In this document: piece after piece, positions 9,991-60,604 of the stretch
Numbering within the stretch: the stretch's first letter is position 1
How the letters are laid out: the number at the start of each line of letters is the position of its first letter
Origin: an uncultured Candidatus Saccharibacteria bacterium
Lineage (GTDB): Bacteria; Patescibacteriota; Minisyncoccia; Phycocordibacterales; UBA12088
Direction of reading: 5' to 3'
Assembly: GCA_964562615.1 (NCBI GenBank)
Contig: CAZLUD010000001.1
Coordinates: 129,072-193,071 of the forward strand
Length of the DNA stretch: 64,000 bases
Notes under the pieces: model-generated
Told to the model about the DNA's origin: nothing
Database searches by the model: none
What the model saw: only the letters and a program-made list of their open reading frames with translations
Program-made: the position numbers and the translations under genes

Positions 9991-10062
9991 GGCCCTATCG
10001 TCTAACGGTTAGGACAGCGCCCTTTCACGGCGTAAATCGGGGTTCGATTCCCCGTAGGGTCA
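9991..10062 (+). tRNA. tRNA-Glu (anticodon TTC)
   Basis: Acceptor ggcccta/tagggtc. D-arm tcgtctaacggttaggaca. Anticodon loop ctttcac. T-arm cgggg-ttcgatt-ccccg. Confidence 0.8.
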
Positions 10063-10113
10063 CAAATCGGCCGACCGAATACGCGTATGCGTTTCGGTCG
10101 TTGCCGTTTGTAG

Positions 10114-10133
10114 GCACTACGGGGAATCGAACG
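10114..10133. repeat. inverted partial copy of the tRNA-Glu 3' end (T-loop plus acceptor)
   Basis: gcactacggggaatcgaacg is the reverse complement of cgttcgattccccgtagtgc. Compare the tRNA 3' end ggttcgattccccgtagggtc. Confidence 0.7.
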
Positions 10134-10277
10134 ACGGAGGCGGTATACAAGAACCGAAGCGAAGCGTAGGTTGCTTGTCGCCGAGTCGCGACCTAATTTT
10201 TACGACCAAAGGGAGATAAAAATGGAAGTACTCTTTGTGGTGCGACCAGCGTGCTTAGCCATAATGGCTTAGCAAAA

Positions 10278-10302
10278 GCGGGTCGATTCCCCGTAGGGCA
10301 CA
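10278..10302. repeat. direct partial copy of the tRNA-Glu 3' end (att-like)
   Basis: gcgggtcgattccccgtagggcaca versus tRNA-Glu cggggttcgattccccgtagggtca. No complete cloverleaf can be folded upstream. Confidence 0.7.
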
Positions 10303-26175: not shown

Positions 26176-26484
26176 CCAAGGTTCGATTCCTGTTCGGGTG
26201 TGGTGATTGTTTCTGTGCCCTTGGCAGGATATCTCACTCCTCGGAAACCTCACGGTTTTCCGAATCCTTCCTCCACGGGGAAACGGTTGTTTCCCCGACC
26301 CCCTTCCAAGGTTCGATTCCTGTTCGGGTGCATCGACCACTACTGTGCCCTTGGCAGGAATCTTTCCTTACAGGAACAGTAGACCTTTTCTGTTTTTCTT
26401 CGAAAAACTATCAAAGGTTTTCGATTCCTGACAAAACAGTCCCCCAGACTGTTTTTCCAGGGCACAAATTTGTAACCAAATTTG
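26176..26484. repeat. three tandem ~130-bp units of tRNA-derived fragments downstream of tRNA-Arg
   Basis: A-fragments ccaaggttcgattcctgttcgggtg at 26176 and 26306, with a degenerate copy at 26412. B-fragments tgtgcccttggcagga at 26214, 26344 and 26484. B is the tRNA-Arg 3' end. Confidence 0.75.
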
Positions 26485-26556
26485 TGCCCTTGGCAGGAAT
26501 CGAACCTACATCTCTCCCTTAGGACGGGATTGCTCTATCCATTGAGCTACAAGGGC
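26485..26556 (-). tRNA. tRNA-Arg (anticodon CCT)
   Basis: Acceptor gcccttg/caagggc. D-arm tagctcaatggatagagc. Anticodon loop gtcctaa. T-arm gtagg-ttcgatt-cctgc. Confidence 0.8.
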
Positions 26557-34324: not shown

Positions 34325-34503
34325 GGTGTGCTTGTTATATATTAATACGGATCATTGTGTTTACACTCACATGCTCATAGAGGTGTCAGATCAACACAAC
34401 AAGCCAAAACCCTACTCACGTAGTATACGACCAAATGTACTCCTTGCACATATATATCTGTGGAATAACAAATGAACACACCCGCGTTGAGGCGGGTGTG
34501 TTC

Positions 34504-34543
34504 ATATCTCTATGTCTGTGCCTATAAGCCGAATTCTGTCTAT
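34504..34543. repeat. 40-bp direct repeat (left copy) identical to the rnpB 3' end
   Basis: atatctctatgtctgtgcctataagccgaattctgtctat, identical to 35993-36032. Preceded by hairpin gaacacacccgcgttgaggcgggtgtgttc. Confidence 0.9.
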
Positions 34544-34571
34544 TAATCTTTACAAGCTCAGAAATACTCAC

Positions 34572-35309
34572 TCAACGATACCGCACCTCCCAGTTACCGT
34601 GGAAAACAAATCCTGTTTCTTGTGAGAGATAATCAATAATTTTCTTGGCTGCTATAGTAACATTATCTACTTTGAGTAATTCTACATAAAGTGCGTGGAA
34701 CTCCCCTCGATCATTTGTTCCGCGTTTTTTTATGAGCTCATTTTTGTGTATACAGTAAAATTGCATTGAGGCTGAGATAATCTCAGCCATTGCTAGGTTT
34801 ACCTCTACTTGGTCATTGCTCCAAATAAGATCATCATAGGCATCCGTAATCTTGTACCAAAGCTGAGGCAACAATGTATCTTTATTCATATACCCAGGAA
34901 ATACCTCAAGATATTGTTTGCAGGTGGCAACAATCTCTACAAGATGTTCCTCCCCAAAAAGTACTTTACCTTCTCCAAAAACATAAAATGGAAGAGTTTC
35001 CGTAGATCCTATACATTCATCAAGATGTTTTTTAATCATCGATAAGGAACCTGAAAAGTAATCAATTCGCTTGGTTTCTGAATAATAATGATTTCCCCGA
35101 AAAACACTATTTTCATTTAATACTAAGAAAATATCTATATCGTTAATTTCTTTTTCTGTCTTATACAAGGCTGAACCAAAAAGAATAGCCGCGATCACAG
35201 TAACATTGTGTTTACTTGAAAAGTCTTCTATAAAACTCATCACGTTTGATTCAACCATACTTATATATTTATGTTTGATATTAAAAATAGGAGAAGCGTG
35301 TGTTTCCAC
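34572..35309 (-). CDS. nucleotidyltransferase (Pol-beta superfamily, KNTase/ANT(4')-like architecture)
   Basis: AAILFGSALYKTEKEINDIDIFLV is the GS...D.D NTase motif. About 245 aa with a helical C-terminal domain. Confidence 0.55.
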   Translation of the reverse strand: METHASPIFNIKHKYISMVESNVMSFIEDFSSKHNVTVIAAILFGSALYKTEKEINDIDIFLVLNENSVFRGNHYYSETKRIDYFSGSLSMIKKHLDECIGSTETLPFYVFGEGKVLFGEEHLVEIVATCKQYLEVFPGYMNKDTLLPQLWYKITDAYDDLIWSNDQVEVNLAMAEIISASMQFYCIHKNELIKKRGTNDRGEFHALYVELLKVDNVTIAAKKIIDYLSQETGFVFHGNWEVRYR

Positions 35310-35333
35310 ATACTTCTCCCACGAACAAGGTGG

Positions 35334-35843
35334 TCAGTCGATTGGGGTAAGAAGTGGCCGCTCTGACGAACGGATCTTGCTGTTGTCCTCAAGTAAAGTT
35401 CCACCACACCACTGACCTGTACAGGTCAGTGGAACCACCTGATGCGGAATCATACCATCTCGAAACTCGCCAAACCTACTGATAACTAAGCGCAAAGTGC
35501 GTCTCGCCGAGTCAATGAGGTTCTTTCGGTCTGCATCGCCCCTCATTCCATAGTACGGAAAGTGGTGCAGAAATCGACCAAAGAGGTCGTTACAATCCTG
35601 CTGGTACTTTTCAGTGTCCAAAATGTGGGCGTGCCATACATCATCGACACCTCCCCAAGGAACAACAGGTTCGTTATCCTGTTGTAATAGCGCTTCTCCG
35701 ACAAGGACTAGAAATTTTCGGTACTCACCGACGGTGGCTTCAGCCCTTTCACGGCTCCAGCCTTTGCCATCCTCTGAATCCACCAACTTTACGATGATAG
35801 GTTCAAGATTCAAGTCTTGGACCTTTTGGTAGATGCTAGACAC
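35334..35843 (-). CDS. DUF1399 (GRDP-like) domain protein
   Basis: VDDVWHAHILDTEKYQQDC ... HHFPYYG matches the DUF1399 D.xWHxHxLxPxxYxxDC motif. Confidence 0.45.
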   Translation of the reverse strand: MSSIYQKVQDLNLEPIIVKLVDSEDGKGWSRERAEATVGEYRKFLVLVGEALLQQDNEPVVPWGGVDDVWHAHILDTEKYQQDCNDLFGRFLHHFPYYGMRGDADRKNLIDSARRTLRLVISRFGEFRDGMIPHQVVPLTCTGQWCGGTLLEDNSKIRSSERPLLTPID

Positions 35844-35992
35844 TGAGACTCTCCTTAGTTAGGTGACCTCTGCAATCAGAATTGCATCATTGCAAATGCT
35901 AACATAAATAAATACTAGAACAAACATTTATTTAATATTGCTTAAACCCGCTATGTATTTTATATAAATACGCCCACAAGATGGGCGTATTT

Positions 35993-36032
35993 ATATCTCT
36001 ATGTCTGTGCCTATAAGCCGAATTCTGTCTAT
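35993..36032. repeat. 40-bp direct repeat (right copy), the genuine rnpB 3' end
   Basis: The reverse complement reads ATAGACAGAATTCGGCTTATAGGCACAGAC, matching the RNase P P4 3'-strand consensus ACAGAAnnCGGCUUA. Confidence 0.9.
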
Positions 36033-36400
36033 CCCTATAGGTGAGTAACTATAGAGGAGATAGGTATGTATCTAGGAGTGTTGTTACCAACACCCTCAAG
36101 CGGCTCTCCCCGCCTATCGTAGGCTTCTATTATATATAAAATACTACGATAGGCGGGGCACGGCCTTGCACGCAGGTAGGAATTTTGCCGTTTCAGTCTT
36201 GCCTCACAACAAGATTTTCTCCATATCGCATTGCGCTATGGAGACCGCATTTCTCTCGAAATAACGCGTCTCTGTTCGCATCCCGTGGATTACTCCAGGT
36301 GGGCGTTACCCACTACCATGCTCCAGCTTGCGCTGGGCGTGTTCGGACTTTCCTCTCCCATTACACTTTCGCACAACAAGAGCAACTATCCAGCACAGGC
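36000..36400 (-). ncRNA. rnpB: RNase P RNA (bacterial type A-like, compact)
   Basis: Minus strand contains GGGAGAGGAAAGTCCGAAC (P4 5' strand), GGGTAACGCCCACCTGG and ACAGAATTCGGCTTATAGG (P4 3' strand). P1 is formed by CTGTG/CACAG. A sigma70-like promoter lies upstream and a hairpin downstream. Confidence 0.75.
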
Positions 36401-36406
36401 GATAAA

Positions 36407-37866: not shown

Positions 37867-37952
37867 GGAGGGTTCGCATAGTGGTCGAGTGCGCCGCCTT
37901 GGAAAGGCGGTATTGGGGAAACCCAATCGAGGGTTCGAATCCCTCACCCTCC
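37867..37952 (+). tRNA. tRNA-Ser (anticodon GGA)
   Basis: Acceptor ggagggt/accctcc. Anticodon stem ccgcc/ggcgg with loop ttggaaa. Long variable arm attggggaaacccaatc. T-arm gaggg-ttcgaat-ccctc. Confidence 0.8.
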
Positions 37953-38000
37953 GCAAAACAAGGAGAACGATGCGAAGCATTGGGTGACTATGTTTTGGGT

Positions 38001-38025
38001 GATAAGTGAGGGATTCGAACGCCGG
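38001..38025. repeat. inverted partial copy of the tRNA-Ser(GGA) 3' end
   Basis: gtgagggattcgaacgcc is the reverse complement of ggcgttcgaatccctcac. It shares 15 nt with the tRNA T-arm and acceptor 3' strand. No complete tRNA folds on the minus strand. Confidence 0.6.
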
Positions 38026-38191
38026 AGTATATTACGTAAGCAATATGAGGCACCATCCTAGGAATGCGAGGATTTTTGTGAGCCTCTTGAGGCGGTACAA
38101 AAACCCGCAATTCAGGGGACCATCCTTAACTTTCCACCAAGTATAGAAAATAATTTTAGCAGTTACCCTACTTCTCCATTACAATGAAATC

Positions 38192-55262: not shown

Positions 55263-57806
55263 TTACTTTGTATCTTGATGCGTCATATAAATCGATCGGT
55301 ACGGATTAGTTTCTACTGCCGTTGCATGAAGTAGCTCAATCTGCGATCTGATCGTAGCCATTATTTCATCATCAGTCTCAGTAGTAAACCTAAGTGGGGC
55401 GCCAATAACTACCGACACTACCCCTTGGCGTGGGATGATTTCATTCTTTTTTAATATGTACGAAAGCCCATAATGAGCAATCGGAACGACTGGCACCTTC
55501 AGTGCGCGAATAAGATGCGCGGTTCCTCGCATAAACGGAAGCATAGCAGCATCATCACCTCGTCTACCCTCAGGAAACATAAGTAGTGATTCTCCACCAT
55601 CTACCACACGACCAGCGTATTGCAGCGATTTTGAAAACCCATCTTGTTGACGCAACAGAAACGCCCCTGCTCCAAATCGCACAAGCAAAAGAATACCTCG
55701 ATACCACATACGCATATACACTGACGCCTGCGGTCGGTGGTAATAGGTATCTGCAGTAGGAGTCGCAAGAAGATATCGATATCTATATGGTAGCGCTCGT
55801 ATGATAACCGAATGATCAGCACTGCTTACATGATTGGTAACAATCATGATAGGTTCCCTTGTAGTAGGAATATGCGCTCTCCCTACAACCTTTAGTGTTA
55901 TAAAGCACGCACTTATCGCGCTTTCAAGTAATGATAAAAGCACGCGAAGCGCTCTACCCATTGGAGTATGGATACCACGAAACCCTACCGCTCTGTGTGT
56001 AGTCTTTTTTCTTTCTTGTATATACCTCTCTATATCAGCAACAGTGGTATGTGAGGTTATCATTTCTTCTGCTAACTCGTAGTTATATTCACGAGCAATT
56101 GCTGCAAGAAGTTCTACCCTTCCTAATGAATCAAGTCCCACCTCACTTATGAGTGTTTGCTGAGGGGCAATAGTAGAGGCGTCCTTACCAGTAACTGATG
56201 CGAGTAAATCGTACAATCTAGACTGTCGTGACGAGCTAGACGAGCCACCTGGGGTAGTGCTAGTAACAAACTTTTTTACCAATGTTCGTTTAGTTTTGAG
56301 AGTGGTCGTTTTAGGAAATTCACGCTCATGCCAAAGACTATATCCTTGTATACGCATCGCGCTTGACAGTACATCATTTGCTCGCTCAACCACATCCTTT
56401 GCATCAGTAGTACCGTCCGCAAGTATCACTACCGCATGTATTGCTTCACCATGTTCGCGCGGCACACCAACCACGCACGCCTCCTTTACTCGTGAATCTT
56501 CCAAGAGCACACGCTCTATATCATCAGGAAATATATTGATGCCTGATGAGGAAAGGATCATTTCTTTTACTCTGCCGCTTACAACAAGATTGCCGTCATC
56601 GTCCATATAGCCGATGTCGCCTGTTTTAAACCACCCATCGCTCGTAAAGGCATCACGGGTAGCCTGTTCATGGTGATAGTACCCGGCAAAGACATTAGGA
56701 CCTTGTACCTCTATTTCTCCTTCTTTTGAAAACCGAACCGACACGTGTGGAAATTCTTTACCAACCGTACCCCACGCTTTATTGGTCGGAGAGGTAGCCG
56801 CAATCACGGGAGATGTTTCAGTGAGTCCATATCCCTCGTATATGGATATACCAACATTTCTCCAGAATGTAGCAATAGAAGGTGACAGTGGCGCACCACC
56901 AGATACCATGTACTCAAAATGAGATCCAAATGCCTTATGGATTTTTCTAAACAACATCTTTTTAACAAATAACGGTGACGTACTCGCTCGCTCGCTAAGG
57001 CGCATAAGCGTGTCGTATGTACCCGCCTCTTTTGCTCTTGCTAGCACTCCTGCATACATCGCCTCGATAAGGCGTGGTACCACCAGCATGTGTGTTATCT
57101 TTTCTTTTTTAAGAAGCACAAACAATGCTGACGCAATAATTGCGCTTGGATATACAATTGTACCCCCCAGCAAAAGCGGCACCCACAACCCCCCTACCTG
57201 CTCAAACATATGTGACAGTGGAAGCGTAGAGAGAACACGAACCCTCTTTCCAAATGAAAAATGAGTTGCCGCACCGCAAACATTTGCAGTTACATTTTTG
57301 TGGGTAAGCATAACCCCTTTTGGGTCACCAGTGGTGCCAGAAGTGTACACAATGTACGCAAGATCACTTTCCTTACATACCGAAGCAGGAATACCGATAC
57401 ATGACTCGATACAATATAAAAAATCTTCGAGCACATAGGTGGGTACCCCTATGTTCAGTAATCGATACTTACTTTTAAGCACCAATCGCGCGTGCGCCCT
57501 GGTGACAATAACCTCTGCAGAAGTACTGGTTGCTTGTACATCTATAGGGACAACTACCGCACCGATCGATAGAGCACCAAGACTTGCAACTACCCACTCG
57601 ATACCATTTAATCCCCACACCACAATCGTGTCTCCTTTATGTACACCTTGCGCGACATACCATGCGCTCGCTTTTTGTATCAGCGTATGCAATGTGGCAT
57701 ACGTATATCGAAAGGTTCGATACCCGTTATGCACCACAATCGCTTCATCCATACGCGATGCGTGTAGCGAAAGTATGTCTACAAGCGTCTTTGGATTTTG
57801 ATACAT
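55263..57806 (-). CDS. tri-domain fusion: acyl-CoA/acyl-ACP synthetase (AMP-binding) - acyl carrier protein - 1-acylglycerol-3-phosphate acyltransferase (PlsC)
   Basis: YTSGTTGDPKGV (AMP-binding). GLDSLGRVELLAAIARE (ACP Ser-attachment DSL). NHVSSAD (HX4D acyltransferase) and FPEGRRG. Confidence 0.8.
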   Translation of the reverse strand: MYQNPKTLVDILSLHASRMDEAIVVHNGYRTFRYTYATLHTLIQKASAWYVAQGVHKGDTIVVWGLNGIEWVVASLGALSIGAVVVPIDVQATSTSAEVIVTRAHARLVLKSKYRLLNIGVPTYVLEDFLYCIESCIGIPASVCKESDLAYIVYTSGTTGDPKGVMLTHKNVTANVCGAATHFSFGKRVRVLSTLPLSHMFEQVGGLWVPLLLGGTIVYPSAIIASALFVLLKKEKITHMLVVPRLIEAMYAGVLARAKEAGTYDTLMRLSERASTSPLFVKKMLFRKIHKAFGSHFEYMVSGGAPLSPSIATFWRNVGISIYEGYGLTETSPVIAATSPTNKAWGTVGKEFPHVSVRFSKEGEIEVQGPNVFAGYYHHEQATRDAFTSDGWFKTGDIGYMDDDGNLVVSGRVKEMILSSSGINIFPDDIERVLLEDSRVKEACVVGVPREHGEAIHAVVILADGTTDAKDVVERANDVLSSAMRIQGYSLWHEREFPKTTTLKTKRTLVKKFVTSTTPGGSSSSSRQSRLYDLLASVTGKDASTIAPQQTLISEVGLDSLGRVELLAAIAREYNYELAEEMITSHTTVADIERYIQERKKTTHRAVGFRGIHTPMGRALRVLLSLLESAISACFITLKVVGRAHIPTTREPIMIVTNHVSSADHSVIIRALPYRYRYLLATPTADTYYHRPQASVYMRMWYRGILLLVRFGAGAFLLRQQDGFSKSLQYAGRVVDGGESLLMFPEGRRGDDAAMLPFMRGTAHLIRALKVPVVPIAHYGLSYILKKNEIIPRQGVVSVVIGAPLRFTTETDDEIMATIRSQIELLHATAVETNPYRSIYMTHQDTK

Positions 57807-57820
57807 ATACGAGTAGTGTG

Positions 57821-58132
57821 TTAAGTAAGTAATACTACCGCTGTGGCATATTCACCATCATGACTTATTGATACACTCGTAATCGTATCATCGCCCACTC
57901 GCAAAAAGGGCGCACCACTTTCTTCGTGGCAAACCTCAAGCAGTAACCAGTCAATCTTCTTACCTATCGCCTTACAATACGCCTCCTTAACGGCAAGGTA
58001 TCCACCGGCGCGCTTTGTATCATTATGTAATGACCGCATTTCAGCATCAGTAAATAGACGCGCGCACTCTTCAGTGCTTGAAAGTAAGCGTTCTACCCGA
58101 CGTATGCTGACTAAATCTATTCCTACCCGCAT
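57821..58132 (-). CDS. acpS: holo-ACP synthase (4'-phosphopantetheinyl transferase)
   Basis: MRVGIDLVSIRRVERL and AVKEAYCKAIG ... W.DIE pattern; 103 aa; immediately upstream of the ACP-containing fusion. Confidence 0.7.
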   Translation of the reverse strand: MRVGIDLVSIRRVERLLSSTEECARLFTDAEMRSLHNDTKRAGGYLAVKEAYCKAIGKKIDWLLLEVCHEESGAPFLRVGDDTITSVSISHDGEYATAVVLLT

Positions 58133-58173
58133 TGGTAGTAGTATACCAGAGCTGTGCTATGCTTTTTGACATG

Positions 58174-58620
58174 GCGATTATTCATAACAAAAAGGCATCA
58201 TTTAACTTCGAACTCTTGGAGAGATTCGAGGCTGGTATAGAGCTTTTTGGCCACGAAGTAAAGGCAATAAAAGCCGGAAAAGCACATCTTGAGGGCGCGC
58301 GGGTACTAGTACGAGGGGGTGAAGTATATCTTGTTGGCGCTACTATATTTGCCTACCAAGAAAGCAATAGCCCTAAAACGTATAATCCCATGCGCAACAG
58401 AAGACTGCTTCTCCATAAAAAAGAAATGCTCCAGATAGCAAGTGCGGAGGCCACCAAAGGGTTGACAATAGTGCCAATTTCGATGTATAATAAAGGTAGA
58501 AAATTGAAGCTTGAGATTGCTATTGCTCGCGGAAAAAAGTTGACAGATAAGCGAGAGACAATAAAGAAACGCGATACCAATAGAGATGTTGAACGCGAGA
58601 CTAAGTTCAAACTTAAATAG
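58174..58620 (+). CDS. smpB: SsrA-binding protein SmpB
   Basis: NKKASFNFELLERFEAGIELFGHEVKAIKAGKAHLEGARVLVRGGEVYLVGA aligns with the SmpB core. Basic C-terminal tail. Confidence 0.9.
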   Translation, partial: AIIHNKKASFNFELLERFEAGIELFGHEVKAIKAGKAHLEGARVLVRGGEVYLVGATIFAYQESNSPKTYNPMRNRRLLLHKKEMLQIASAEATKGLTIVPISMYNKGRKLKLEIAIARGKKLTDKRETIKKRDTNRDVERETKFKLK

Positions 58621-58710: not shown

Positions 58711-59091
58711 GGGGATGATTGGCCTCGACAGTGAGTATGTGTTGCATAGTGTGCGAGTTCGTGTGAGGTGACACGGTAAAAACATCTCAACCAATACGTG
58801 CTACAAAACTTCGCACGGCAATTCTTTCACCTTTCCAGATGAAGGATTTTGCACTCGCTGTAGCCTAAGGCTCGCGACATCCTACAGAGTATTGTCTGAT
58901 AGCTTTGTAACGGTGTAATACCATCAGAACCGCAGAAAGGGTGCATCGCCTTATCTGTTAAATAATGATGCTATATGGTATCGGCTTTTGACGAATTTTC
59001 TATCGACACCACGAACCAACAAATTCGCCAAGACTTCGTAGACTCACTATGCACTCCTCTCTGGATGCGGGTTCGATTCCCGCCATCTCCA
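58711..59091 (+). ncRNA. ssrA: tmRNA (SsrA), standard one-piece
   Basis: 5' GGGGATGATTGGCCTCGACAG (tRNA-like half). Candidate tag ORF GCA-ATT ... GCACTCGCTGTAGCCTAA encodes AILSPFQMKDFALAVA-stop. 3' GGATGCGGGTTCGATTCCCGCCATCTCCA, whose acceptor pairs with the 5' GGGGATG. Confidence 0.8.
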
Positions 59092-59093
59092 CA

Positions 59094-59493
59094 AAACATA
59101 CATCAAGCGCCTTCGGGCGCTTTTTGTTTTGTGGAGATCGAGCGAGCAAACTGCTTTGCTCGCGTCGGGAATCGAAAGACGCAGGCATATCGCGAAGCGA
59201 TGCCGAGTCGTGGTCAAGAGTGCTTAGTATTTTTAGAGCAACGCGAATAAAAATAGTTAGCAACTCGTGACCGATCCGCCATCTCCACAGATTAAAACAA
59301 TACCGCCGCTTAGGCGGTTTTTGTTTTGACTGTGGAATGGAAGACGATGCCTTCGCATCGTCTGTCGGGAATCGAACGGCGGAGCGTTATACGCACGACA
59401 GAAAGGAGTACGTATCGCGAGCCGCGTCCAACAACACTTAACGAATGCAATGAGTTTAGTGATTGTGGGACGATTCCCGCCATCTCCACAAAT
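59094..59493. repeat. two tandem ~200-bp units carrying direct partial copies of the tmRNA 3' end plus inverted T-loop fragments
   Basis: ccgatccgccatctccaca at 59271 and cgattcccgccatctccacaaa at 59471. Inverted gtcgggaatcgaa at 59165 and 59364. Each unit begins with a hairpin plus T-run (59105-59125, 59304-59323). Confidence 0.8.
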
Positions 59494-59573
59494 AAAATTA
59501 CTGCCTGCTTTGCTTGGGTTTTAATTTTGTTGTGTATTTTATATTTGGAATCTAGATTTGCTATACTCCACTC

Positions 59574-60101
59574 ATGAAATCACCGACCATCGAATCTGGT
59601 TCCTATGTTATAAGACCGTTTAAGACGAGTGATGCCGAATTGTGGCAAACGTGGGATATTGATCATGAAGTGCAAGCATTTATGCCGGAGCCGTTTAATG
59701 AACCACAAGAAATTAAGGAGCAGTACGCATACATAAAAGCATGTGATGCTGATGAAGAAGGATACTACTGGTCAATTGAAACGAAGGACGGAGTCACAAT
59801 TGGTACCATCGCACTCACAGAATACAATGACTACCATGGCGTTGCTAATCTCGGTATTGTTATCGGAGATAAAAACTATTGGGGCAAAGGGGTTGCAACG
59901 GAGACCATCACTACTCTTGTCGACTATGCATTTACGAATCTAAATCTTTTCTATATTAGCGCTGAAGTTGAGGAAGGAAATATTCCGATGATGAATGTCC
60001 TAGAAAAAGTCGGGTTCAAACAAGATGGTTTATTTGAATCAGCTCGGGTAAAAAATGAAAAACGAATCAATGTTCACCATTTCAGTATTGTTAAGTGGTA
60101 A
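59574..60101 (+). CDS. GNAT acetyltransferase, RimL/RimJ-like
   Basis: SYVIRPFKTSD ... GVANLGIVIGDKNYWGKGVATE ... NIPMMNVLEKVGF matches the RimL-type GNAT. Confidence 0.8.
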   Translation: MKSPTIESGSYVIRPFKTSDAELWQTWDIDHEVQAFMPEPFNEPQEIKEQYAYIKACDADEEGYYWSIETKDGVTIGTIALTEYNDYHGVANLGIVIGDKNYWGKGVATETITTLVDYAFTNLNLFYISAEVEEGNIPMMNVLEKVGFKQDGLFESARVKNEKRINVHHFSIVKW

Positions 60102-60604
60102 TGAATATTTATATGAAAAGCATAAAAATAACCCCCATTAAACAACGAGACGCTAGTGCCTGCGGACCTACCAGTATTGAAATGACTCTGAAATACTTTG
60201 ACGTACCACATACAGTCGCGGATATTACTAGGATAACTAACTATAAAAAAGAAGGTGGCATATACAACAAACAACTGGTGGGCGTGCTACAACACTATGG
60301 CCTTAAGACAAAAGTTTTGAAGAATACCTCTTGGGAACAACTGATGGGACTAAATACCAAAGATTCTGTGATAATTCTTTCTTGGATGCTTGATGGCTAC
60401 ATTGGACACCTTAGTGTTTTGGATAATGTTGATAAAGACCATATCTATCTCGCAGAACCTACAACTGGAGAAATATTAAGGATAGGTAAGATAAAGTTTC
60501 TCAGACTCTGGTTAGACTACGAGGCTAAAGCTGAAGTACCGTTATTCCCCGAATCAAAGTCTGACATTCAACTGAGGTGGTTGTGTATTGCATCGAAACC
60601 ATAA
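60095..60604 (+). CDS. stand-alone peptidase C39-like cysteine protease
   Basis: IKQRDASACGPTSIEMTLKYFDV (Gln oxyanion plus Cys nucleophile as in C39), a later GHLSVL His and an Asp. 7-nt overlap with the GNAT gene. Confidence 0.6.
   Translation: MVMNIYMKSIKITPIKQRDASACGPTSIEMTLKYFDVPHTVADITRITNYKKEGGIYNKQLVGVLQHYGLKTKVLKNTSWEQLMGLNTKDSVIILSWMLDGYIGHLSVLDNVDKDHIYLAEPTTGEILRIGKIKFLRLWLDYEAKAEVPLFPESKSDIQLRWLCIASKP

Follow-up and report, generated by a model that had tools for sequence, protein, structure and literature searches.

Genomic islands at tRNA genes (tDNAs) are marked, in the Islander concept, by displaced direct repeats of the 3' end of the target gene (PMC4383910). At ssrA, the gene for transfer-messenger RNA (tmRNA), the islands of Dehalococcoides are inserted mid-T-loop, carry 20-bp repeats, and have a 540-aa serine recombinase next to attL (PMC3146451). 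We analyzed a 64,000-nt stretch of DNA from an uncultured Candidatus Saccharibacteria bacterium (contig CAZLUD010000001.1 of assembly GCA_964562615.1, positions 129,072 to 193,071; hereafter the window), in which ssrA is followed by two tandem units that repeat its 3' end. The initial annotation of this locus interpreted the units as scars of serial integration and excision bordering an island of peptide-modification genes. Our analysis indicates that they are very probably copies of a conserved, structured, and gene-less module of ~160-200 nt rather than passive attachment (att) scars. The module is lineage-specific and previously undescribed, and it is carried by Parcubacteria directly 3' of tmRNA and some tRNA genes.

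The locus resembles tDNA and ssrA islands in having direct tandem copies of the gene 3' end that start from the T-loop and lie downstream of ssrA. In related genomes, an open reading frame (ORF) for a large serine recombinase (LSR) of ~535-541 aa converges on the tmRNA end, as in the DsiB islands of Dehalococcoides (PMC3146451). In contrast to tDNA and ssrA islands, the segments between the repeats are only ~180 nt long, gene-less, folded, and conserved, with an inverse copy of the repeat inside them. Furthermore, such units are also found at tRNA genes, with arms that match those genes, and the islands of this lineage insert proximal to the units.

The tmRNA gene and the two units behind it

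The gene directly 3' of smpB was called as a tmRNA by both ARAGORN (58711-59092, plus strand) and Rfam RF00023 (58711-59094, plus strand; 84.5 bits against a gathering score of 47, model positions 1-374), in agreement with the full ssrA of the initial annotation. In the cmscan alignment, its tRNA-like domain has a GGGGAUG/CAUCUCC acceptor pairing with G3:U70 and the T arm GCGGG-UUCGAUU-CCCGC. A proteolysis tag is present as annotated, although the predicted peptide is longer than the one that was quoted, which corresponds to its C-terminal part alone (Table 1). The reading frame of the tag is kept in 59 smpB-linked tmRNAs of related genomes, which share the pattern ...SP(Y/F)...DFA.A..A and whose tags read ...SPYF...DFAFA.A. 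An SmpB product of 153 aa is called in other assemblies. Judged by these sequence features, the gene at 58711-59094 is a real tmRNA.

The repeats of the tmRNA 3' end were reproduced with the reported spacing of ~200 bp. Exactly two copies of the 20-mer CGATTCCCGCCATCTCCACA are present in the window, at 59074 and 59471 (chance expectation 0.01), and its 12-nt core GCCATCTCCACA is exact at three sites (59082, 59278, and 59479). The start-to-start distances between the three copies are 196 and 201 nt, and the middle copy, CCGATCCGCCATCTCCACAGA, has degenerated and lacks 2 nt. The inverted T-loop fragment noted in each unit, GTCGGGAATCGAA, was confirmed at 59164 and 59364, as were the terminator-like hairpins ahead of each unit, which are GC-rich, predicted structures followed by T-runs (59105-59122 and 59302-59318). 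In addition, each unit contains an inverted acceptor strand that had been overlooked (TGTGGAGAT at 59130 and TGTGGAATGG at 59331). Since the acceptor and T-loop strands are both inverted, each unit would be closed by a long helix between its 5' and 3' parts, and the direct tmRNA-end repeats and the inverted T-loop fragments therefore represent the two strands of this closing helix.

The order of elements in a unit is the terminator, the complement of the acceptor strand, a hairpin designated Px (9 bp with a 4-nt loop), the complement of the T-stem and T-loop, a body of ~95 nt, and the direct copy of the tmRNA end. Both units are predicted to fold into closed multi-branch structures, with free energies of -67.3 kcal/mol for unit A (z=-5.4 relative to shuffled sequences) and -72.1 kcal/mol for unit B (z=-6.5). 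In the alignment of the two units, the Px hairpins are alike in position and shape and entirely different in sequence. The covariance model (CM) described below matched unit A at 59131-59289 with 159.9 bits and unit B at 59331-59490 with 124 bits.

A conserved module family behind tmRNA and tRNA genes

The SmpB-anchored loci put the organism within Parcubacteria/Paceibacterota. The same arrangement was found behind the tmRNA gene in several distant relatives, with arms that match each genome's own tmRNA end. An alignment of 9 sequences, made with MAFFT, was analyzed by RNAalifold, which independently gave compensatory changes in 18 of 23 pairs. The CM identified 59 matches in the window and 80 genome loci combined, and a set of 80 metagenome loci yielded another 16. 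Among the 59 sequences, 87.5% of the pair cells are canonical compared to 62.7% in shuffled alignments (a level that none of 500 shuffles reached), double changes occur in 47 of the 48 modelled pairs, and the covariation score is 0.403 compared to 0.13 for shuffled and 0.04-0.07 for slid alignments, with the caveat that the 59 sequences were aligned by fitting to the model itself. The Px hairpin (helix 2 of the model) is 94.8% paired, and all nine of its pairs covary. On the strand co-oriented with the gene, G-U pairs outnumber A-C combinations by 99 to 50 (p=7e-5). The smpB-linked lineages that share the module are only 50-65% identical in SmpB.

The initial annotation had named repeats that belong to a longer unrelated structured RNA as contrary to its view, and the repeats are indeed part of a longer folded element; the conserved and covarying family contradicts their reading as scars. 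No Rfam 15 family matches the units, either in the window at the gathering threshold or in the region 59080-59580 at E<=10, where only the tmRNA end and noise were returned, and no account of such an element turned up in our literature searches. The CM detected no unit in 123 scanned loci of viral contigs; the matches of viral contigs to the motifs GAATCGAAAGNCGGAG (43 loci) and TCGTGACCGATTCC (120+ loci) were thus attributed to chance.

A distance of 35-55 nt separates the start of the CM matches from the preceding tmRNA or tRNA gene (Ser, Ile, Glu, or Arg), which is on the same strand. With the filters off, exactly 5 significant matches were obtained in the window, all of them behind four of its seven tmRNA and tRNA genes (chance about 1e-9): two behind the tmRNA and one each behind tRNA-Glu, tRNA-Arg, and tRNA-Ser(gga). 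The neighbors of these units are housekeeping genes (Sua5, TsaD, PNPOx, histidine phosphatase, M48 peptidase, and LemA). In the sampled Parcubacteria relatives, the module lies behind roughly a third of the tmRNA genes, and the frequencies by gene are 26/74 for tmRNA, 7/25 for tRNA-Ser, and 2/76 for tRNA-Ile. A count that is independent of the CM gave the inverted T-part downstream of 31 of 85 tmRNA genes compared to upstream of 6 of 85. Terminator-like hairpins were found behind 31 of 32 tmRNA genes with a unit compared to 24 of 62 without one (p=9e-9), which makes the terminator part of the module; they precede the array in 49 of 64 cases and follow it in 16 of 63.

The arms of each unit copy the 3' end of its own neighbor gene, as observed for tmRNA, tRNA-Glu, tRNA-Ser, and tRNA-Arg. 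In 25 first units, the 5' arm matched the functional gene end at 15.6 of 18 positions on average compared to 12.2 of 18 for the unit's own 3' arm, with 21 cases against 1 in this direction, and the 3' arms are often decayed. The view of the closing helix P1 as the selected feature was weakened by this better fit of the 5' arm to the gene end. The 5' arms of distal or second units prefer neither neighbor. The unit copies within one genome are strongly diverged, and the proximal units of arrays usually score higher in the CM.

Several other known systems combine short repeats, folded structures, and tDNA ends. REP/BIME-type repeats (repetitive extragenic palindromic sequences and bacterial interspersed mosaic elements) and bacterial MITEs (miniature inverted-repeat transposable elements), such as the Correia elements, are short, non-coding, and strongly folding repeats at gene 3' ends. 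Similarly to these, the units have alternating repeat orientation, defined linkers, and a copy number that varies between strains. In contrast to them, the arms are site-specific copies of the neighbor gene rather than a fixed, transposase-recognized terminal inverted repeat, the units are found only behind tDNAs and in one orientation, and their interior is a three-way junction rather than a simple palindrome. A terminal inverted repeat that is the same genome-wide, as expected of MITEs, was not found; the arms differ at tmRNA, tRNA-Glu, tRNA-Ser, and tRNA-Arg.

In the attP(+) site of the CTX phage and in integron attC sites, inverted target-like copies fold into a duplex that mimics the target. 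The units share with these sites two inverted copies ~100 nt apart, strand-specific selection, and tandem arrays. They differ in that the helix mimics only that part of the tDNA which lies to one side of whichever crossover is plausible, and in that the interior is conserved, unlike the variable attC loop. No R/L boxes or XerCD/IntI-type site was seen in the arms by inspection, and no integrase lies nearby. Functional RNAs in the 3' trailer of tRNA transcription units are represented by the external transcribed spacer RNA 3'ETS-leuZ of E. coli and by the tRNA-miRNA units of murine gammaherpesvirus 68 (MHV68), and the units resemble these in their location in the tRNA 3' trailer region. To our knowledge, the 3'ETS-leuZ and MHV68 systems have no intervening terminator, no arm antisense to the 3' end of their own tRNA, and no multi-helix fold shared between loci. 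The primer-binding site of retroviruses and long-terminal-repeat retrotransposons comprises ~18-20 nt exactly complementary to a specific tRNA 3' end. The 5' arms are likewise an ~18-20-nt complement of a specific tRNA 3' end; in contrast to the primer-binding site, this complement follows the genomic trailer (ACAAAA) and not the mature CCA, and no reverse transcriptase (RT) is nearby. A retron non-coding RNA or primer-binding site was dropped on these two grounds. Other candidate structures were likewise rejected by inspection: a hammerhead-like junction because of unsuitable strand lengths; a standard k-turn or box C/D guide because C/D boxes are absent and the internal loop measures 3x2; Px-P3 kissing loops because of their inconsistency across sequences; alanine identity because the arms have A3-U70 instead of G3:U70; and an intron in the T-loop because no group I match was obtained.

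The features of the tmRNA locus and of the other units in the window are listed in Table 1. The third-unit stub was found in all three strain haplotypes described below.

Table 1. Features of the smpB-ssrA locus and of the other units in the window
Feature	Positions	Strand	Basis or remark
smpB (SmpB protein)	58132..58620	+	Pfam PF01668, E=1.2e-46; gene callers start at 58159
tmRNA gene (ssrA), no encoded CCA	58711..59094	+	ARAGORN; full-length Rfam RF00023 match
Predicted tag reading frame ATKLRTAILSPFQMKDFALAVA and stop	58800..58868	+	ARAGORN; similar tags in 59 relatives
X1, functional tmRNA 3' end (T-loop C56 to trailer), copied downstream	59074..59095	+	Repeat search
T1, terminator hairpin (59105-59122) and T-run, first element of module A	59105..59131	+	Predicted
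Unit A, 5' arm, outer part TTTGTGGAGAT, complement of tmRNA acceptor 3' strand and trailer	59128..59138	+	Inverted repeats, fold
Unit A, Px hairpin GCGAGCAAA-CTGC-TTTGCTCGC	59142..59163	+	Inverted repeat; CM helix
Unit A, 5' arm, inner part GTCGGGAATCGAA, complement of T-stem 3' strand and T-loop	59164..59176	+	Inverted repeat
Unit A, body, conserved three-way junction of a P2/P3 hairpin and a long P4-P6 hairpin whose internal loop is CTTAG/CTTAG	59177..59269	+	CM, fold
X2, unit A 3' arm, degenerate direct copy of tmRNA 3' end	59270..59291	+	Repeat search
T2, terminator hairpin (59302-59318) and T-run, first element of module B	59302..59328	+	Predicted
Unit B, 5' arm, outer part TGTGGAATGG	59331..59340	+	Fold, inverted repeat
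Unit B, Px hairpin AGACGATGC-CTTC-GCATCGTCT	59342..59363	+	Inverted repeat, alignment to A
Unit B, 5' arm, inner part GTCGGGAATCGAA	59364..59376	+	Inverted repeat
Unit B, body	59377..59470	+	CM, fold; different unit B' in its place in strain L325
X3, unit B 3' arm, 22/22 copy of tmRNA 3' end	59471..59492	+	Repeat search
Third-unit stub, 3' half of Px hairpin CTGCTTTGCTTGGGT	59505..59519	+	Direct repeat with 59151-59165
Unit behind tRNA-Glu (9991-10063), arms copy tRNA-Glu 3' end	10101..10302	+	CM 33.9 bits, E=3.7e-8
Unit behind tRNA-Arg (26484-26556, minus strand)	26344..26465	-	CM 31 bits, E=2.6e-7, filters off; fold
Unit behind tRNA-Ser(gga) (37867-37954); 5' arm complements tRNA-Ser T arm, 3' arm decayed	37989..38134	+	CM 25 bits, E=1.4e-5

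A number of individual loci depart from the simple gene-terminator-unit order. Behind the tRNA-Arg unit of the window, two further degenerate units whose interiors are weakly recognized by the CM occupy 26212-26338 on the minus strand; they contain two more inverse copies of CAGGAATCGAA and another direct copy of the tRNA-Arg end (ATCCTGCCAAGGGCACAG), and the second 5' arm complements a different acceptor sequence (TTCGGGTGC). At the relatives' locus L048 (437-604, minus strand), no tRNA was detected near the unit, which has a terminator-like hairpin in the Px position. Its arms form a perfect 20-bp pairing unrelated to any tRNA (AACACAAAAGAACAGTCGCC and GGCGACTGTTCTTTTGTGTT), which shows that pairing, rather than tRNA identity, is conserved. 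Arrays of at least four units were found at L010 (10960-11440) and L004 (14807-15090), where the internal members are without a terminator and outer arm and their 3' arm reads CCGATGAACCC, no longer resembling the tmRNA end. At L018 (5484-5800) and L005 (860-1400, minus strand), partial tRNA duplicates (from the anticodon stem to the T-loop, or 5' halves) adjoin the units, and the 5' arm fits the pseudo-copy while the 3' arm fits the real gene, which points to recombination between tDNA-like sequences. At L046 (10860-11840), a near-identical block of ~170 nt that consists of the last 6 nt of the tmRNA, the terminator, and the unit occurs twice in a cassette-like layout, flanking a 166-aa membrane-anchored ORF on the opposite strand; the block identity stops inside the 3' arm after CGATTCC. 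The contigs of several independent assemblies end in the T1 hairpin loop (59117), and assembly contigs also break at or inside the tRNA-Glu and tRNA-Ser units (10269 and 37955), as did most of the contigs retrieved from beside these two units. The modules thus fragment short-read assemblies.

On the other side of the locus, smpB is adjoined by a gene whose 847-aa product fuses AMP-binding, phosphopantetheine-attachment, and acyltransferase domains, and after it comes a gene for a 103-aa 4'-phosphopantetheinyl transferase (55263-58132, minus strand). The fusion is a lipid- or nonribosomal peptide synthetase-like loading enzyme, which is unusual in a small-genome bacterium.

Integration and strain variation at stable-RNA gene ends

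The displaced direct-repeat fragments of the tmRNA 3' end that Islander looks for are present as X2 and X3, and together with X1 they flank the ~180-nt units like attL and attR repeats. The segments between them are non-coding and contain no integrase, no cargo, and no shift in GC content; what distinguishes the strains is whole units rather than cargo. A Pfam scan of ~50 ORFs in the window revealed no integrase, recombinase, transposase, or RT. The claim that the units themselves are scars of integration and excision was therefore abandoned: they belong to a conserved covarying family, are found also behind tRNA-Glu, tRNA-Ser, and tRNA-Arg beside housekeeping genes, and have no recombinase in the window.

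The broader proposal of an integration hot spot is in agreement with other observations in this lineage, namely LSR islands at tmRNA genes and probably at tRNA-Glu, a cassette at the RNase P RNA gene (rnpB), and the variability of the arrays. At L004 and L039, LSR genes of 541 and 535 aa converge on and overlap the tmRNA end. The respective islands are ~7 kb long; their defense-type cargo includes a C5 methylase, HATPase_c_3/Hypoth_Ymh, and DUF2326 with ABC-3C CTD10. They end in an 8-10-nt repeat of the tmRNA end followed by the terminator and units, suggesting that LSR islands insert between the gene and the module. By tblastn, LSRs of ~535-541 aa whose genes converge on and overlap the tmRNA end were detected in at least 8 loci (L004/L249, L025, L038, L039, L041, L283, L310, and L315). 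In a conspecific contig (L339, positions 1-727; GCA_020049755.1, JAHZTO010014928.1), identity with the window stops exactly at the tRNA-Glu 3' end (10064), and an ORF ending in a Zn_ribbon_recom domain, the C-terminus of an LSR, converges on tRNA-Glu; this layout points to an LSR island at tRNA-Glu in the place of the unit that is found in the window. At 34494-36032 of the window, a 1.44-kb segment (34544-35982) is flanked by 50-nt direct repeats that are 94% identical and include the last 35 nt of rnpB (35998-36401, minus strand). The segment encodes a Polbeta/NTP_transf_2 nucleotidyltransferase (245 aa) and a 169-aa ORF and is missing from six conspecific contigs (L343-L348). It is a genuine att-style insertion without an integrase.

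We further compared the locus with conspecific contigs that were recovered by exact-protein look-ups and have flanks 98.8-100% identical to the window. Relatives obtained through SmpB had a best identity of 65% among species-representative genomes and 64% among metagenomes of the Joint Genome Institute, which is too distant for an empty-site comparison. Three haplotypes were found behind the tmRNA gene: A-B in the window, L324, and L326; A-B' in L325, with another member of the family (B', 86 bits) in second place; and B' alone in L329, with an smpB-GNAT spacer of 767 nt compared to 954 nt. In L325, the left breakpoint lies right after ...CCATCTCCACA and the right breakpoint inside X3. Within one species, units are thus added to, lost from, or exchanged in the arrays through recombination in the repeated arms. 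The empty-site comparison called for in the initial annotation gave one-unit, two-unit, and swapped-unit haplotypes, and no zero-unit haplotype was found among the conspecific contigs compared.

The proposal of a GC-elevated cluster that begins right after the last repeat copy did not hold. The GC content after the last copy (0.44-0.46) lies within the range of the window (0.41-0.50), and all strains match the window up to 60171, so that the GNAT gene and the first 70 nt of the next ORF, encoding a C39 peptidase, are conserved. The strain-variable block starts at 60172, inside the C39 peptidase ORF and 680 nt past the last copy. Past this position, the window has the C39 peptidase, arginase-family, and ThiF genes, whereas L325, L326, and L327 have a 47-aa stub followed by RE_Eco47II, C5 methylase, and LexA/S24-like genes, suggesting that a restriction-modification block interrupts the C39 gene in the other strains.

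Possible functions of the module

The explanation that we favor, tentatively, is that the sense strand of the module may act in cis in a folded, single-stranded form, probably as RNA on read-through transcripts. The module consists of a terminator (T), a 5' arm (X') reverse-complementary to the final ~20 nt of the gene and usually split by Px, a body with a conserved three-way junction, and a 3' arm (X) that repeats the gene 3' end and can pair with X'; the array behind the tmRNA gene comprises two diverged tandem modules and the stub of a third. In transcripts that run past the terminator, the 5' arm would clamp one of two partners, the 3' end of the gene itself or the decoy 3' arm, although single-stranded DNA might take the place of RNA. 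The arms would be kept matched to the gene by selection, by hairpin-templated (quasi-palindrome) copying, or by both, and the LSR islands would use the same gene ends by inserting between the gene and the module. We favor a folded strand acting in cis because of the sense-strand G-U bias and the gene-matched arms at six tDNAs with homologous bodies, and because the copies within a genome are old and diverged while the first 5' arm is kept against the functional gene end.

Several results weigh against this explanation, beside the model-fitted alignment mentioned above. A good-looking terminator stands before each unit and usually none after the array, suggesting that transcription of the units may be low, and no promoter-like sites were found inside the units. 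In the minimum-free-energy fold of the full read-through RNA, the tmRNA 3' end is trapped in the 5' arm of unit A, which would be harmful rather than obviously useful. Unit presence was not correlated with the orientation of the downstream gene (co-directional/convergent 9/13 with units compared to 28/15 without), leaving a simple insulator role unsupported, and the GC skew, used as a measure of replication orientation, was no different at tDNAs with and without units, which likewise speaks against an idea based on head-on replication. The units are individually dispensable, as seen in the one-unit haplotype of L329; about two-thirds of the relatives have none, and the arms of distal units are decayed.

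The main rival, which we regard as possible but doubtful, is a small non-autonomous insertion element, either a mini-island or a cis-mobilizable element. A package of replacement 3' end, terminator, inverse arm, and body would recombine into the T-loop or 3' end of a tDNA and displace the old end; serial insertion would build arrays with the newest unit next to the gene, and the fold would be a single-stranded intermediate whose arms re-create the target duplex, by analogy with CTX attP and integron attC. Such an element would account for the presence or absence of terminator and unit as a block, with a terminator before each unit and not after the array, for the usually higher scores of proximal units in arrays, and for the preference for classic integration targets (tmRNA and tRNA-Ser over tRNA-Ile). 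The tRNA fragments and chimeric arms at L018 and L005, the duplicated ~170-nt block of tmRNA end, terminator, and unit that flanks the 166-aa gene at L046, and the intraspecific polymorphism, both in copy number and by exchange of a unit, with its breakpoints at the repeated arms, are in line with it too, and X' fits X1 better than X2, as an element-borne stem predicts. However, homologous bodies with arms for at least six tDNAs are hard to square with sequence-specific integrases or a pre-formed target mimic, the divergence of copies within a genome argues against a recent burst, and unequal recombination between arms could account for the haplotypes with no site-specific enzyme. The identity block coincides with the helix ends, so that only a half-site would be mimicked; neither a recombinase among the ~50 window ORFs nor a unit in the scanned viral contigs was found. 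A related proposal, which we consider unlikely, is a self-templating recombination or insertion element for stable-RNA genes, in which the arms would be a folded copy of the target end and pairing, rather than a dedicated integrase, would set the target. The arms would guide the module and perhaps also the LSR islands that land at the exact boundary of X1 and the terminator.

The initial view that the 3'-end copies are passive attL/attR-type scars of large integrase-bearing islands, with the last copy bordering a current island, now appears very improbable. Direct 3'-end repeats from the T-loop are indeed what tDNA islands leave, LSR islands occur at ssrA in relatives, and the region farther downstream varies between strains. 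Against it, the ~180 nt between the repeats form a conserved covarying structure across distant genomes and tRNA sites, the inverted copies and Px are left unexplained, and the window shows no integrase and no GC shift; the real LSR islands leave ~8-10-nt repeats and lie proximal to the units, and the variable block from 60172, past the conserved GNAT gene and first 70 nt of the next ORF, is a restriction-modification insertion into C39 in other strains. Quite unlikely, in our estimate, is a non-functional by-product, in which intramolecular template switching (quasi-palindrome correction or extension) is nucleated by the terminators that form hairpins behind highly transcribed tDNAs, so that the gene end is copied inversely and then directly around successive hairpins. 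This process would produce the alternating X-T-X'-body-X-T-X'-body-X pattern, and it is consistent with X' tracking its neighbor across the short T hairpin far better than the distant X2, with the X and X' copies around partly different interiors in the tRNA-Arg flank, and with seven tDNAs that have inverted copies but no CM match. It leaves unexplained the conserved sequence and compensatory evolution of Px and body in lineages with 50-65% identical SmpB, the G-U bias, and the occurrence of X' almost only alongside the body. We give a similarly low probability to genes for trans-acting small RNAs, whose 5' arm would be antisense to the tmRNA or tRNA 3' end as a regulator, sponge, or decoy and whose 3' arm would be an internal auto-inhibitor. 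The complementarity of the ~20-nt 5' arm to the gene end, the stable fold, and the one unit away from any tDNA (L048) are compatible with this role, but the units have neither detectable promoter-like sites nor a terminator after them, action in trans does not need the strict cis adjacency, and folding of the tRNA or tmRNA buries the strands to be targeted.

At the level of sequence and predicted structure, the data exclude passive att scars and establish a conserved, gene-specific, and folded module, which is related to known kinds of tDNA-linked repeats and structured extragenic elements. Island finders that rely on displaced 3' fragments of tDNAs as att sites will be misled systematically by the modules, which also break assemblies at their loci, as seen in the several contigs that end in the T1 hairpin. 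They also pose the puzzle of a near-perfect antisense copy of the 3' end of an essential RNA kept 40 nt behind its gene. At the RNA level, a gene-specific anti-3'-end clamp that sequesters the tmRNA or tRNA tail on read-through transcripts would, if true, be as new as a self-templating element. The module would link terminators, stable-RNA maturation, and serine-recombinase islands aimed at the same nucleotides, a connection that is testable. The covariation, position, and strain data indicate that the family is real; if so, it represents a widespread unannotated structured element of candidate-phyla-radiation genomes.

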